From positions 1 through 64,000 of the forward strand of contig JAWOCD010000099.1 in NCBI GenBank assembly GCA_046483985.1: a DNA stretch of 64,000 nt. Direction: 5' to 3'. Positions 31,450-45,767 of the stretch are shown here, piece by piece. Within the stretch, counting starts at the first letter, position 1. Every line of letters starts with the position of its first letter. The DNA is from Promethearchaeia archaeon (GTDB lineage Archaea; Asgardarchaeota; Lokiarchaeia; Sigyniarchaeales; SOKP01). Both the position numbers and the translations under genes were made by a program. Under the pieces are notes generated by a model. It did no database searches. It worked only from the letters and a program-made list of their open reading frames with translations, and was not told the DNA's origin.

Positions 31450-31511
31450 GTTATAAATCTATGTACGATTCATCGGCGGTCTAAAGGACGATGCTTTCTC
31501 GCACTTTAGTG
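31450..31511 (-). mobile_element. Orphan IS200/IS605 left end (same family as the 44049 element)
   Basis: Minus strand TTTAC|CACTAAAGTGCGAG-AAAG-CATCGTCCTTTAGACCGCCGATGAATCGTACATAGATTTATAA aligns to TTTAC|CCATAGAGTGCGAA-AAAG-CACCATCCTCCAGGGCGGTGGTGAATCGCACATATATTTATAA at 44044 onward. Confidence 0.8.
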
Positions 31512-31606
31512 GTAAATTAACCCCCATGAGATTAAAAAGCGGGTTCAAAAAAACCTTTAGTCTTGGTTAAAAAGTTACAGAGCAATCTTAAAAAAGAGAG
31601 TAAAAA

Positions 31607-40836: not shown

Positions 40837-43797
40837 TTAGAAAAAGGTGTCCATTTTTTTAATCCCTTTAATTTCTTCGTAAGTTATGCCTAACGCATCT
40901 AACACTTGCTCCAGGGCTGAGCGCAGCAATTCTTTGTATTTCCTTACATTGAGATCCTGAATCTTAGCCAAACTAATAGCTTTCGCACCGGCTGAATCTT
41001 TACTCTTGATGAATGACACTACATCTCCCTTTTGCAATTCCTTTCCTGTCCTTCTCTTGAGATCTAAAGCCGCGCGAACATGTTGGGGAGTGGTTTTATT
41101 ATAATTGTCAAGCTTTTTGCGAAGACTAATATTTATGGCATAATCTTCTAAAGGAAAGGCGCCTTTCCTCCCAATTTTCTTTTGGCTCTTTCGAACGGTT
41201 TCAATGATATTATTCTTCGCTTTTTCAAATTCTTCCATGGTGGTGATATCCTTTAAGATTTCAATGAGCCCTTCAAATACCTTTTTTATAAAATCAGGGG
41301 TATTTTTTTTCTTGGCGAGTAAACCTTTCATGTCTACATACTGCGTGTCTTTATGGATTCCTATATAATTTTTCTTTCGATCAGATAATCCCAAGAATTG
41401 ATATATCTTCTCTTCTTCCAAATCTAAATCCAATTCTTCCTTACTCCATTGGGATAACTTTTCTAATTTTTCTTGAGAAGGGTTATGTAGGAAAACCGAA
41501 TCGCTATCGCCATATAGGACATCTATCCCCATTTCTTTTGCTTTTTCTACTGTAGATTTTATCGAATAACGACCTATTCCCGTGGTACTTTCTGCAACAG
41601 GGAGACAAAATAGAGGAAAGTTTTTAGATCCAAAAACTCCGTAGCTTCCATTAATAAACACCTTTAAAGCTTGCTGTATTGTATAATAATAACTTCTGCG
41701 CTGCTCTGGTAAACTCTCATCCTTTGATTTTGGCTTAAAATACTTTACGCGAATATCCCTAAAAAATCCGACAACATAGGCGAAGATGCCCATCTTATGC
41801 TTGCACACATGATAAGGGGTTCCCTTAATCATATTTTCGATACACTCATCATGAGGACATTGTACAGTTTCGTAAGAAAGATTATATTCTTTAATAATTG
41901 ATGGGTAAAGACTTGCAAAATCCATCACAACCACGTCAAAATAAATACCTGGTTCCGGCGGTATCACATAAGCCCCTTTAAAACCTTTTCCTTCCACTGT
42001 TGATTTGGAATATCCTCCCTTTTTAAGCTCGGATATTTCCCGCCTTAGGGGAATCAAGAAGTTCTGTTGTCGATGCTCGAAAAAGAAAATATTTTGAATC
42101 CACGAAGAGATTTGATGACGAATCATATCATGGATCGGCATTTTTGTTATCCTGCATAATAAAATAATAAGATTCCAAACCAGAGAATTGTTAAATTGGG
42201 TTAATTCCAAGGTTAAAATGGAGTCCTTCAAGTTATACCATGCGAGTGTGCCATAATTCAATTCATGGATTTCTTCTTCGTGAGAGTATTTTTCTTTGCC
42301 CAACAATGCAGAACTAATTGAATTCAAGGAACTTCGATCATAGGCCCCTCCAAATGCATATCCCGCTATACTGCGGTTAAAGAAGAAATTGAATAGATCG
42401 ATATGGATTCCTCTTCGGAGATTGCATTCTGCACGGGAAAGAAATCCGTACCCTCGTTTGACATGAATGGGATTAAGATCCCTTTCTACTTTCAATTTTG
42501 TTGCCCGATGGGATAAATAATTAAGATCAAAATTATCCCCATTAAAGGTAACAAGAATTGGATATTCCCAGATGAGGCGAAAGGTCTCCTCAATCAAGGT
42601 TTTTTCATTCTTAAAAAATATGAGTTCCGCATCTTCGGGAAACTTTTCGTGTAATTCCCCATAAGAAAAACCCTCACGTTCTAGCATAAACACCTTTTTT
42701 AGTCCATCATTAGCCACCAAGGAAACGCTGATGATTGGTTGCTTTACTTGACGAGGATTGGGAATTGCCTTTTGATTTGGACCCATCTGGACTTCTATAT
42801 CTAATGCTAATCTGTTTACTTCAGGGATCGGCGTGAGAAAGACGTCTAAGTTTGAGGTGGCAAATTCTTGCATCTCTTCCGGTGTATCCTTAAAGAGATT
42901 TGTCAATTCCGTTTCAAGCGTTTTTAAATTATTCTCATCCTCATAATACTCTAACCGTTCTAACTTTCCGTTTTTCATCGTATATATGAGACCAGGGAAT
43001 AAATTACGATCATAAATATAGTTTAGATGATAGCGAATATTTGCCTCCCAAGCGTTGCCGCTTCCCAAAATCTTCCGAATGTTGCTACGTGAGCCCCCTA
43101 TATCTGTCGGAGTCTCTCCGTAGATTTTAGTCATTTCTATATCTTTATCACGCAATAAATCAATTCGTTTTATGGCCTCAAAACGCTCAAGACCCGAGTA
43201 ATTGGTGAGTTCAATATTATTCTCTAACTGTGCTATGGATTCTTTACTAAGGCAATAAGGCTCATGGTCAGTGGTGTCTAACCAGATTTTAATCTCGCCG
43301 GTCTCTAAATCGTAAAACTTACACACTGCCTTATTTTCGCCTCCATCATAACCGACATCAAGCAATAAGCCTTTTTCCAGATCTTTAACTATATCTCCTT
43401 TTTTAATGAGATATCGGATATAACGGGAACTTATGTTTTCCCGTTTAATTTTCTTCAGATTCACTTCTTCAGCTTGGATTCCAAAAGGTGTGTCGCTCCC
43501 TTCGAAAAATAAATCCTTAGGAATTTCCTTTATATCCTTCTGGGTCTCATCTTTTTTGTCTTTTTTCTCCTCTTCCGTCTGTTTGCTTACATTCTCTCGT
43601 ACTCCCCTTTTTTTCCTCTTCACTTTTTTCTTCTCTTCTTTCTTTTTAGTTTCCTCTGGTTTTTCCGTTCTTTCCTTTTCCTTTTGCTTTTCCTTAGTTG
43701 ATTGTTTTTCTTGCTTTTTTTTCGAATCGTCTACAAAGGAGAATAGGGAACTCTGTGATTTATCTTTATTATCCTTCTTTTTAGCCATTTCATTCAC
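40837..43797 (-). CDS. polB1: Family B DNA polymerase, PolB1 type
   Basis: ExoI ALDIEV, ExoII TFNGDNFD, DFASLYPSII, QQALKVFINGSYG, YGDSDS, KKNY. Lys-rich N-terminal extension. Confidence 0.93.
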   Translation of the reverse strand: MNEMAKKKDNKDKSQSSLFSFVDDSKKKQEKQSTKEKQKEKERTEKPEETKKKEEKKKVKRKKRGVRENVSKQTEEEKKDKKDETQKDIKEIPKDLFFEGSDTPFGIQAEEVNLKKIKRENISSRYIRYLIKKGDIVKDLEKGLLLDVGYDGGENKAVCKFYDLETGEIKIWLDTTDHEPYCLSKESIAQLENNIELTNYSGLERFEAIKRIDLLRDKDIEMTKIYGETPTDIGGSRSNIRKILGSGNAWEANIRYHLNYIYDRNLFPGLIYTMKNGKLERLEYYEDENNLKTLETELTNLFKDTPEEMQEFATSNLDVFLTPIPEVNRLALDIEVQMGPNQKAIPNPRQVKQPIISVSLVANDGLKKVFMLEREGFSYGELHEKFPEDAELIFFKNEKTLIEETFRLIWEYPILVTFNGDNFDLNYLSHRATKLKVERDLNPIHVKRGYGFLSRAECNLRRGIHIDLFNFFFNRSIAGYAFGGAYDRSSLNSISSALLGKEKYSHEEEIHELNYGTLAWYNLKDSILTLELTQFNNSLVWNLIILLCRITKMPIHDMIRHQISSWIQNIFFFEHRQQNFLIPLRREISELKKGGYSKSTVEGKGFKGAYVIPPEPGIYFDVVVMDFASLYPSIIKEYNLSYETVQCPHDECIENMIKGTPYHVCKHKMGIFAYVVGFFRDIRVKYFKPKSKDESLPEQRRSYYYTIQQALKVFINGSYGVFGSKNFPLFCLPVAESTTGIGRYSIKSTVEKAKEMGIDVLYGDSDSVFLHNPSQEKLEKLSQWSKEELDLDLEEEKIYQFLGLSDRKKNYIGIHKDTQYVDMKGLLAKKKNTPDFIKKVFEGLIEILKDITTMEEFEKAKNNIIETVRKSQKKIGRKGAFPLEDYAINISLRKKLDNYNKTTPQHVRAALDLKRRTGKELQKGDVVSFIKSKDSAGAKAISLAKIQDLNVRKYKELLRSALEQVLDALGITYEEIKGIKKMDTFF

Positions 43798-44048
43798 GAA
43801 AATTAGTTCAAATTAAACTCTCTATATATATTATTTTATCTTCTATTTTAATTTCATCTATTCAGAGTTTAATATCTTTTATAGAGAATATAATTTCTAC
43901 AAATAAATAAGAGAGGGGGGAATCTATTTTTCTCAAATATTACTCATAAAATAAGATTCTACCGAAATCAATAAAACACGGGCAATTTCTAAAAGAAGAA
44001 TAATAATCTATGGGATACATATTGAAATCCAAAATTTATTAACTTTAC

Positions 44049-44272
44049 CCATAGAGTGCGAAAAAGCACCATCCTCCAGGGCGGTGGTGAATCGCACATA
44101 TATTTATAAAGGAGCGCTACTATAATGTAATTGATGGACGATAACCAAGTTCATCATATAACCGCAGGGACTGCGGGGCTGGCGTTCGGAGAGGATGTAA
44201 GATCGATGTTATCTGTGTCGGCGATTCTCGATGAATTACGAATCCATCGCCCTTCAGGGCGTGATAGTTCAA
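44049..44272 (+). mobile_element. Non-autonomous IS200/IS605 mini-element (internally deleted tnpB, intact ends)
   Basis: TTAC|left end with AAAG guide and hairpin; TATA box TATTTATAAA at 44101; vestigial TnpB C-terminus TAGTAGLAFGEDVR; right end GAAT-CCATCGCCCTTCAGGGCGTGATAGT-TCAA. Confidence 0.88.
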
Positions 44273-44292
44273 AAGCTAAGCATAAGTATAGA
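44158..44292 (+). ncRNA. Putative TnpB omegaRNA (reRNA/sotRNA-like) scaffold plus flanking guide
   Basis: Hairpin CCGCAG-GGA-CTGCGG; CGTTCGGAGAG/CTCGATGAA stem; pseudoknot TGAATT (44232-44237) with AGTTCA (44266-44271); right-end hairpin. The guide would begin AAGCTAAGCATAAG at 44273. Boundaries are approximate. Confidence 0.65.
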
Positions 44293-44318
44293 AAAAAATA
44301 TCAAAATGGCTTAAAAAA

Positions 44319-45767
44319 ATGAAAAATGGAAAAGATTTAGCTGATTTTGCGGTTAATTTTGGATCTTCGCAAGGTACAGAATATATGGAAGCACGGTTTA
44401 TAGAATCAACAGAAGAAAGCTATACTGCACGGAATGGGATGTTTTTGGGCATTTTAAATAATACTAAAAAGGGGGTAGGCATCAGGGCTTTAGTAGACGG
44501 CGGAATGGCATTTGGATCTACTGAGAAGTTAACCAAACAATCCGTCAAAAAATTAGTCAATGATATAGTCGATATGGCACGGGCAACTAGACCAAAAGAT
44601 CCCATTCATCTTTCTTCAGAATCTCCCACGGAGACTTCATGGAAGACAGAAGTTGAGCGGAAATTCGAGGATGTCACCGGAGAAGAAAAGCAGGAGTTTA
44701 TAAAACGATTAGATAAAAATCTCAAAAAAGAGGGTAGTCGAAAACTGAAAAACCGAATCGCCTTTATGTTGTTATATAAAGAAAATAAATATTTCGTGAC
44801 AAATGAAGGCTCTAAAATCGATTCAGATCATTCTTTGATTACTATGACTTTAATGAATACGGCCAAGGGAAAAGGAGGTTCAGAGCAGCGACTATTCAGT
44901 ATGGGGGGCACCGCAGGATGGGAGTGGTTAGATGATATTAATTTTATCGATCTTGCCGTAAATGATTGTAAAAATGTAATGAGGGCAGCGGAAGAAGCGG
45001 AAATTGTTAAATTCAATAATCCGATCGATATTGTCGTTAGCGGAGAGATTTCTGGAATTATGGCCCATGAAAATGTGGGGCATCCCAGTGAAGGAGATAG
45101 AATTTTAGGACGTGAAGGAGCACAAGCGGGAGAATCTTTTTATGCAGACATTTTAGACAAAAAAGAGTTGGGAGAAGCAAAAATTGGAAATGAAGAGGTG
45201 TCCGTTATCGATGATCCCACCCTTCCTGGCAGTCCGGGATTTTATCTGTTTGATGACGAAGGGGTAAAAGCCCGAAAACGCTATCTCATAAAAAATGGAA
45301 TGTTAAATGAATTGCTATTGAATAGAGAATATGCAGCAAGATTTGATACGAAGTCCACGGCGGCTGCTCGTGCCTTGAGCTACAATCGGGAACCCATCCC
45401 GCGTATGGCTAATACCTTTTTTGAGCGGGGAGATTTTACAAAAGAAGAATTAGTCGAGGATATTGATGAAGGTATATTGATGAATAGTTTTACAGAATGG
45501 AATATCGATGACCGGCGCTTTCAGAGTAAATACGTGGGATTGGAAGTATATCTTATAAAAAACGGGGAAATAACAGATACTATGGTTCGCCGCCCCATTT
45601 TAGAGTTAACTACTTATGGAATTATGGAAAGTGTCGATGCTGTCGGAAAAGATTTCTTTGCTCCAATGGGTCTCTGCGGCAAGGGAGATCCACTACAAGG
45701 AATTCCCGTATCTCTGGGAGGGCCCCATATACGATTAAGAAATATTAAAATCGGTGGGGGAAACTAA
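44319..45767 (+). CDS. tldD: TldD family metalloprotease
   Basis: GVGIRAL, HENVGHPSEGD (HExxGH), DDPT...FDDEG, PIPRMANTF, CGKGDPLQGIPVSLGGP. Confidence 0.93.
   Translation: MKNGKDLADFAVNFGSSQGTEYMEARFIESTEESYTARNGMFLGILNNTKKGVGIRALVDGGMAFGSTEKLTKQSVKKLVNDIVDMARATRPKDPIHLSSESPTETSWKTEVERKFEDVTGEEKQEFIKRLDKNLKKEGSRKLKNRIAFMLLYKENKYFVTNEGSKIDSDHSLITMTLMNTAKGKGGSEQRLFSMGGTAGWEWLDDINFIDLAVNDCKNVMRAAEEAEIVKFNNPIDIVVSGEISGIMAHENVGHPSEGDRILGREGAQAGESFYADILDKKELGEAKIGNEEVSVIDDPTLPGSPGFYLFDDEGVKARKRYLIKNGMLNELLLNREYAARFDTKSTAAARALSYNREPIPRMANTFFERGDFTKEELVEDIDEGILMNSFTEWNIDDRRFQSKYVGLEVYLIKNGEITDTMVRRPILELTTYGIMESVDAVGKDFFAPMGLCGKGDPLQGIPVSLGGPHIRLRNIKIGGGN

Follow-up and report, generated by a model that had tools for sequence, protein, structure and literature searches.

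The element described here lies at positions 44049 to 44272 on the forward strand of a 64,000-nucleotide stretch of DNA from a Promethearchaeia archaeon (referred to below as the window; positions 1 to 64,000 of contig JAWOCD010000099.1 in assembly GCA_046483985.1). It is 224 bp long and sharply bordered, with TTTAC directly before it and TCAA at its end. On the same strand and 46 bp downstream is tldD (44319 to 45767), which encodes a PmbA/TldD metallopeptidase (Pfam PF19289, PF01523, and PF19290) and is followed by a second PmbA/TldD peptidase gene. Upstream, a gene encoding a family-B DNA polymerase (polB) is divergently oriented. The host genome, G000, is a draft MAG of 4.06 Mb in 128 contigs with a G+C content of 35%.

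The left end of the element (44049 to 44099) is built from an outer stem in which GTGCGA (44056 to 44061) pairs with TCGCAC (44092 to 44097), enclosing the guide tetranucleotide AAAG (44063 to 44066) and, directly 3' of it, a subterminal hairpin formed by CACCATCC and GGGCGGTG (44067 to 44086). When folded as DNA, the left end gives these nested stems (z = −2.9). Next comes a TATA-like box, TTTATAAA (44103 to 44110), a putative archaeal promoter that is kept in nearly all copies of the element and that aligns with AT-rich boxes of the mini-elements in genome G022 and of a left end in genome G150. As the family is Asgard archaeal, a TATA box is the relevant promoter type, and from the position of this box transcription would be predicted to start near 44133. 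A hairpin, GATGGAC/GTTCATC (44133 to 44155), is predicted in the single-sequence fold and is formed across what proved to be a deletion joint between 44149 and 44150.

The remainder of the element, from 44150 to 44272, is the remnant of a tnpB 3' end together with the right end of the transposon, that is, a scaffold of the omega-RNA type. It contains the hairpin CCGCAG/CTGCGG (44162 to 44176), a long-range stem (44191 to 44196 with 44224 to 44229) that encloses a variable hairpin (44201 to 44207 with 44216 to 44221), the tetranucleotide GAAT (44240 to 44243) 5' of the right hairpin (44244 to 44264), and the TCAA terminus (44269 to 44272), all on the forward strand. The right hairpin can be drawn with one unpaired T. 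The hexamers TGAATT (44232 to 44237) and AGTTCA (44266 to 44271) are complementary and had been proposed to form a pseudoknot. All of the motifs listed in a preliminary description of this DNA could be read from the sequence in their places. The same description called the ends intact; both ends are indeed kept, but each terminal hairpin of this copy carries one mismatch relative to the family consensus (A.C in the left hairpin and C.A at the foot of the right hairpin). If an RNA is made, TnpB biology would place the guide-supplying flank directly beyond the right end (44273 to 44292, forward strand; AAGCTAAGCATAAGTATAGA) (PMC10691335), and the predicted guide target in this copy would be TTTAC followed by AAGCTAAGCATAAGTA. 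The first 16 nucleotides of this flank had no other site in the genome at one mismatch or fewer.

A profile search of the host genome recovered 23 end-to-end copies of the element, the full unit being 224 to 230 bp, along with 32 fragments containing only the left end and 29 containing only the right end. When copies were aligned with their flanks, similarity began exactly at TTTAC and stopped exactly after TCAA, and the flanks were unrelated. All 23 full copies were intergenic by a crude open reading frame call, the right flank was different in each, and no target duplication was found. TTTAC (44044 to 44048 on the forward strand in the window, outside the element) formed the left border in 17 of the 23 end-to-end copies and in full-length relatives, and TTTAT or TTTAA was present in most of the other copies; this conserved left flank bears out the earlier prediction that TTTAC is the target and transposon-adjacent motif. 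An AT-rich context such as this one is a place where TTAC, TCAA, and TATA-like motifs are common, and the locus could in principle have come together from such motifs by chance, or be a regulatory region conserved in the host, and not the relic of a transposon. Since the unit recurs 23 times with the same exact borders and unrelated flanks, it must be more than a chance arrangement, and because both of its halves are also homologous to full-length tnpA/tnpB elements (see below), we regard this explanation as extremely improbable.

The family is not confined to this position of the contig. A left-end-only fragment is present in the window on the reverse strand at 31451 to 31520 (model positions 1 to 66; E = 1.4e-11), and a nearly full further copy lies just past the end of the window at contig position 64402 to 64611. 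The genome also contains single-copy derivatives of about 100 to 170 bp in which the hairpin ends are kept and most of the scaffold is gone (G000 C23:27939-28053, C85:50050-50148, and C87:9393-9562); amplification in G000 was confined to versions with the whole scaffold and the TATA-like box. Outside the host, a 23-base right-end pattern was found at 32 loci among approximately 185,000 species genomes. Wherever the host of this pattern was named, it was a member of the Promethearchaeota or Helarchaeota (Asgard), the other records being labelled only "uncultured archaeon," so that the family to which the element belongs is Asgard archaeal. Genome G022, which belongs to a different genus, has its own family of approximately 250-bp mini-elements of like design.

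A protein homologue search that took an alignment of the translated remnants as its query and was aimed at longer proteins gave two short matches and no full-length TnpB. The parent elements were located by DNA and protein searches of related genomes, and full-length tnpB homologues were present in 26 of 134 related genomes of the same family. One of these, in genome G024 (L034:332-1597), encodes a 421-amino-acid TnpB, P0003, with the HTH_OrfB_IS605, OrfB_IS605, and Cas12f1-like TNB domains (PF12323, PF01385, and PF07282), and the gene is flanked by TTTAC and the left end on one side and by ...GGTAGTTCAA on the other. The right half of the mini-element aligned with the last ~125 nucleotides of ten full-length tnpB elements (that of P0003 and nine others), with which it shares the CCGTAGGGACTACGG hairpin, GCGTTTGGAGAGGATGTAAGAC, the variable hairpin, CAATTCTCGATGAATTACGAATCC, the right hairpin, and TAGTTCAA. 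The segment thus occupies the position of the omega-RNA (reRNA), since its homology to full-length tnpB genes covers their 3' end and continues as far as TCAA.

The left half was traced to a locus in G150 (L081) at which TTTAC is followed by a left end that is ~85% identical over 59 nucleotides, then by tnpA, and then by tnpB. The TnpA encoded there is a 141-amino-acid Y1 transposase with HUH and SQSY motifs (L081:1074-1499). The noncoding left region of this locus and the left part of the mini-element run collinearly up to ...GATACCCAAG, where homology ends, and this places the deletion joint at 44149|44150 (CCAAG|TTCATC). These alignments confirm that tnpB genes with these ends exist, in one case together with tnpA, in relatives of the host, and that the element is, as had been supposed, a tnpB-less derivative that retains both ends, the TATA-like box, and the omega-RNA-encoding segment. 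One detail of the preliminary description needs qualification. The ATG at 44134, which opens a frame reading ...TAGTAGLAFGEDVR, had been described as fused almost directly to the TnpB C-terminal signature; we reject the idea that it is the start of tnpB because the segment is collinear with noncoding left-end DNA upstream of tnpA in L081, from which the ATG derives.

The organization of the ends resembles that of a well-studied insertion sequence. IS608 inserts 3' of TTAC, and its TTAC and TCAA cleavage sites are recognized by guide tetranucleotides located 5' of hairpins (PMC3201880). As in IS608 of Helicobacter pylori, the cleavage and target tetranucleotides of the element are TTAC at the left and TCAA at the right (PMC3201880). 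The left guide AAAG likewise stands directly 5' of the foot of the left hairpin, and GAAT is found here in the corresponding place at the right. We take the right guide of IS608 to read GAAT also. The distance from TTAC to the left hairpin is 18 nucleotides here and 19 in IS608, and the TCAA end is reached 8 nucleotides after the right hairpin here compared with ~10 in IS608. Unlike IS608, a bacterial insertion sequence of 1.8 kb that carries tnpA and tnpB, the element is archaeal, is 224 bp long, and has neither gene, and apart from the short motifs no nucleotide similarity between the two can be detected. The specific target, the lack of target duplication and of terminal inverted repeats, the guided hairpins, and the homology of the ends all place it with IS200/IS605 elements of the IS608-like type, and its dispersed copies with precise borders are an indirect sign that TnpA may have mobilized it.

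Gene-less derivatives of IS200/IS605 elements, named PATEs, were first described in Haloquadratum walsbyi, where some carry a disrupted C-terminal remnant and many occur in genomes in which every tnpA gene is broken (PMC3119063). PATEs have also been noted in Geobacillus stearothermophilus, with the comment that they "often encode omega-RNAs," whose use by TnpB would be in trans (Meers et al. 2023, doi 10.1101/2023.03.14.532601). Like PATEs, the element lacks terminal inverted repeats and target duplication, has subterminal hairpins, is preceded at its 5' border by a short target oligonucleotide, is too short to encode a protein, and arose through deletion of an IS605-type core with retention of a C-terminal remnant, as in some PATEs. 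It is 224 bp long and multicopy, its remnant is disrupted, and both of its ends are common to a full-length element from which an internal segment has been deleted. Based on these features, the element is very probably a nonautonomous IS200/IS605 mini-element (a PATE or MITE) with IS608-like ends that was produced by a single internal deletion. It differs from described PATEs in having an Asgard host, in the TATA-like box directly upstream of the scaffold in an amplified family, in a deletion joint that could be mapped and that created a new 5' hairpin, and in that neither a compatible tnpB nor an intact tnpA was found in this assembly.

Downstream, the element runs toward tldD, and the preliminary description had suggested that a residual open reading frame could drive or translationally couple tldDE. 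This frame, of 63 codons (44131 to 44322, forward strand), has as its stop a TGA overlapping the start codon of tldD (ATG at 44319). It had no match in Pfam, and its last 50 nucleotides, including the stop/ATG overlap, belong to the unique flank. In several other copies the frame is interrupted by stops and frame changes, and the parental tnpB frame, which ends ...AVGTTVNAFGEDVRLSMGEQFSMNYESTTFRKW*, can be followed in the mini-element only with a change of frame. Given these stops and the frame change relative to the parent, we judge the remnant to be noncoding, and its overlap with the tldD start codon is then incidental.

Regulatory co-option of the element could take the form of an outward-facing promoter or of translational coupling through the residual frame, either of which would drive or modulate tldD and tldE. 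The element is co-oriented with tldD at a distance of 46 bp, no T-run terminator follows the TATA-like box on the forward strand before the ATG of tldD is reached, and the stop of the frame overlaps the start of the gene; a read-through transcript into tldD would be conceivable from the sequence. However, the frame is not conserved in other copies and its ATG comes from noncoding left-end DNA. A downstream gene was called for 22 copies; 10 of these genes share the strand of the element and 12 lie on the other one, which amounts to no orientation bias toward downstream genes. In addition, the AT-rich stretch in the 46-bp spacer could be the core promoter of tldD itself. The element was also absent from the 600 nucleotides upstream of tldD in the six best orthologues in relatives, all of which are more distant than the same genus; this agrees with the earlier view that it is an insertion and not a fixed part of tldD promoters. 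With the frame broken elsewhere, the overlap in unique flank, and no bias in orientation, we did not uphold the proposed driving or coupling of tldDE through the residual frame, and co-option of either kind appears to us distinctly unlikely.

The structure of the scaffold was examined comparatively on 46 sequences, comprising 18 copies from G000, 18 from G022, and 10 full-length elements. In the alignment, 89.2% of cells were paired, compared with 28 to 43% when the partners were slid by 1 to 3 columns. Both sides had changed in 22 of 42 pairs, and none of 500 shuffles reached any of the observed measures, although the sequences entering this test are related to one another. Most of the signal came from the internal helices, with 4, 4, and 5 pairs changed on both sides in helices 2, 4, and 5, respectively. 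Examples of compensation include CCGCAG/CTGCGG versus CCGTAG/CTACGG; GAGGAT/ATTCTC versus GGGGAT/ATCCCC versus GCA/TGC; and CCGAT/GTCGG versus CTGAT/GTCAG versus CTTGT/GCAAG. Compensatory and wobble changes were also present in the stems of the terminal hairpins (helices 7 and 8, and the left end too). The stems thus covary between subfamilies. For the proposed pseudoknot TGAATT:AGTTCA, 94% of cells were paired and no pair had changed on both sides; its segments are nearly invariant and covariation is therefore uninformative for this pairing, and RNAalifold preferred a competing pairing, GGACTA:TAGTTC. The single-sequence RNA fold of 44132 to 44272 (z = −1.2) was not distinctive alone. It is possible that the covariation reflects the structure of single-stranded DNA instead of RNA, or that it was inherited from several full-length parents and not maintained in the mini-element lineage.

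An Rfam scan of positions 43000 to 45000 at E ≤ 10 gave no match to an omega-RNA, sotRNA (RF02656/RF02657), or IS605-orfB family. The sole overlapping match was to the Enterococcus small RNA Ref70 (44156 to 44288), at chance level (21 bits, with the gathering score at 115; E = 1.3). The match has the CNGNAGGGACUNCNGGG hairpin in common with the element, which in frame reads G-T-x-G, as at the TnpB C terminus, and Ref70 may itself be a tnpB 3' RNA. The element is similar to the haloarchaeal IS1341-type sotRNAs (RF02656 and RF02657; PMC12558985) in being an archaeal noncoding RNA region that overlaps the 3' end of tnpB. Unlike those sotRNAs, which are expressed from intact tnpB loci (PMC12558985), its scaffold is unrelated in sequence and has no Rfam match.

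The behavior of individual copies was different from that of the subfamilies. Substitutions private to one copy (singletons) were counted within each subfamily and expressed per site per copy. In the main subfamily they amounted to 0.040 in stems and 0.040 in unpaired positions, and in the G022 family to 0.024 and 0.026, respectively. The two small subfamilies, with 3 and 6 copies, had somewhat higher values in stems (0.056 versus 0.039 and 0.062 versus 0.045). Base pairing was lost through 63 of the stem singletons and preserved in 41. Pairwise identity between full copies reached a maximum of 91.7%, with a median of 75%. Because singletons fall on stems as much as on loops and more often disrupt a pair than preserve it, and because no two copies are more than 92% identical, the copies look like old relics that drifted neutrally after insertion. 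The compensation is seen between subfamilies, which we interpret as change along the spreading lineages that was followed by drift once each copy had inserted. This age estimate could be biased if near-identical young copies were collapsed or lost during assembly.

Whether such an element could still be mobile or functional depends on partners encoded elsewhere, and the preliminary description had proposed that it borrows TnpA and TnpB in trans. The search for a cognate tnpB that it had recommended was successful in relatives, whereas the host's own assembly contained none intact. No cognate full-length tnpB was found in the host genome at E ≤ 1e-30, and tblastn with the P0003 TnpB recovered C-terminal remnants only. 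A cognate-type tnpB 3' end of ~60 codons with its right end begins exactly at the start of a 2.8-kb contig (L128; G000:C31:1-191), and a full-length cognate gene may be present but unassembled. No intact tnpA was found in the assembly either; each assembled copy, all of them belonging to a second element referred to here as family A, has a frameshift or an internal deletion or is truncated at a contig end. In a draft MAG repeated genes are often lost or broken, and the lack of a partner should be read as not found in this assembly. The sole intact-looking tnpB in the assembly is also of family A (L126:3-1229, reverse strand) and is ~30% identical to P0003. Family A was considered as a source of compatible TnpB and judged unlikely; its hairpins are similar, but the low identity is accompanied by a 3' RNA region that cannot be aligned.

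An active, mobile stand-alone guide-RNA gene would have its own promoter, would produce an omega-RNA that is loaded by TnpB encoded elsewhere, and would still be moved by TnpA. The retention of the TATA-like box in nearly all copies and the covarying scaffold stems are what such a gene would present, stand-alone omega-RNAs do work in trans in other organisms (PMC10691335; Meers 2023), and the cognate-type fragment at a contig start leaves room for a full gene that escaped assembly. Against this stand the failure to recover a cognate tnpB beyond C-terminal remnants, the divergence of the family A gene and its unrelated 3' RNA region, and the fact that every assembled tnpA is broken or cut by a contig end. 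Furthermore, identity between copies does not exceed 92%, singletons that disrupt stems have built up at the neutral rate, and this copy is mismatched in both of its terminal hairpins. We therefore consider present activity unlikely, and with no intact cognate gene found and neutral accumulation of stem-breaking mutations among copies this divergent, the claim that the element now borrows TnpA and TnpB in trans was not sustained.

Other transposons in the genome share features with the mini-element. Family A (L126; G000:C97:1-2200) is a second multicopy IS605-type element with tnpA and tnpB, is flanked by TTTAAC, ends in TTCAA, and breaks the assembly at many contig ends. On two contigs (L010, G000:C97:58750-58953, and L021, G000:C13:38352-38456), a copy of the mini-element is cut at about position 204 by the start of a family A tnpA that runs into the contig end; the identical junction on both suggests an insertion sequence nested in a mini-element. 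A third tnpB lineage, family B (...NDRDMVRSINILKKY...), is represented by remnants at L127 (G000:C71:19100-19704), C18 (104495 to 105017), and C24 (23618 to 23891). Family B and the mini-element have the left end, a TATA-like box, and the last 35 nucleotides of the right end in common, whereas the 3' RNA body differs. This suggests that one set of ends recognized by TnpA may be common to several types of tnpB and omega-RNA.

A history consistent with these observations can be proposed. Homology shows that the element originated when a single internal deletion in an IS608-like tnpA-tnpB insertion sequence of Asgard archaea joined the noncoding left end and its TATA-like box to the last ~125 nucleotides of the parent, comprising the 3' end of tnpB and the right end with the omega-RNA scaffold. 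If IS608 rules apply, a Y1 transposase supplied in trans would have peeled off the element as single-stranded DNA and inserted it 3' of TTTAC, using AAAG/TTAC and GAAT/TCAA pairing between guide and cleavage site at the two subterminal hairpins. Excision of this copy would leave an empty site reading TTTAC|AAGCTAAG. While the family was active, an RNA whose guide came from the right flank could have been loaded into a compatible TnpB made elsewhere, and the loaded TnpB would have cut the empty site left by excision, so that retention of the element was favored. Retention of this kind would explain why the amplified subfamilies have the whole scaffold and compensatory changes in its stems. The copy between polB and tldD most likely has no present function beyond, possibly, that of a promoter facing tldD.

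The idea of a mobile stand-alone omega-RNA is already published and is not new. In a survey of TnpB systems, stand-alone omega-RNAs were described as mobilized and as functioning in trans (PNAS 2023; PMC10691335). The element resembles the stand-alone omega-RNAs of OMEGA systems (Altae-Tran et al. 2021, via PMC10691335) in having neither effector nor transposase and in having its guide flank outside the right end; it differs from them in that it is known here from sequence alone and in that its copies look neutral. A far-reaching possibility is that self-promoted omega-RNA mini-elements of Asgard archaea form a working repertoire of trans-acting guides, with the TnpB either unassembled or divergent in this MAG. 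We think this improbable. If it were true, one TnpB would load RNAs from 20-plus loci and guard the insertions or act at their flanks, which here would be the tldD promoter region, and the hairpin at the deletion joint would be the dedicated 5' end of a promoter-driven omega-RNA made without processing from a tnpB mRNA.

The finding adds an Asgard archaeal example to the gene-less IS200/IS605 elements that keep an omega-RNA, and for this example both the deletion joint and the type of parent (tnpA-tnpB with TTTAC/TCAA ends) are now mapped. For annotation, it means that about 85 intergenic fragments in this genome are transposon debris and that the small open reading frame before tldD should not be called a gene. 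Most informative is the behavior of the stems, which are compensated between subfamilies, yet decay neutrally in single copies. This contrast fits selfish retention, in which the RNA matters during spread and not afterwards, and it speaks against the view that every such cassette is a domesticated guide gene.
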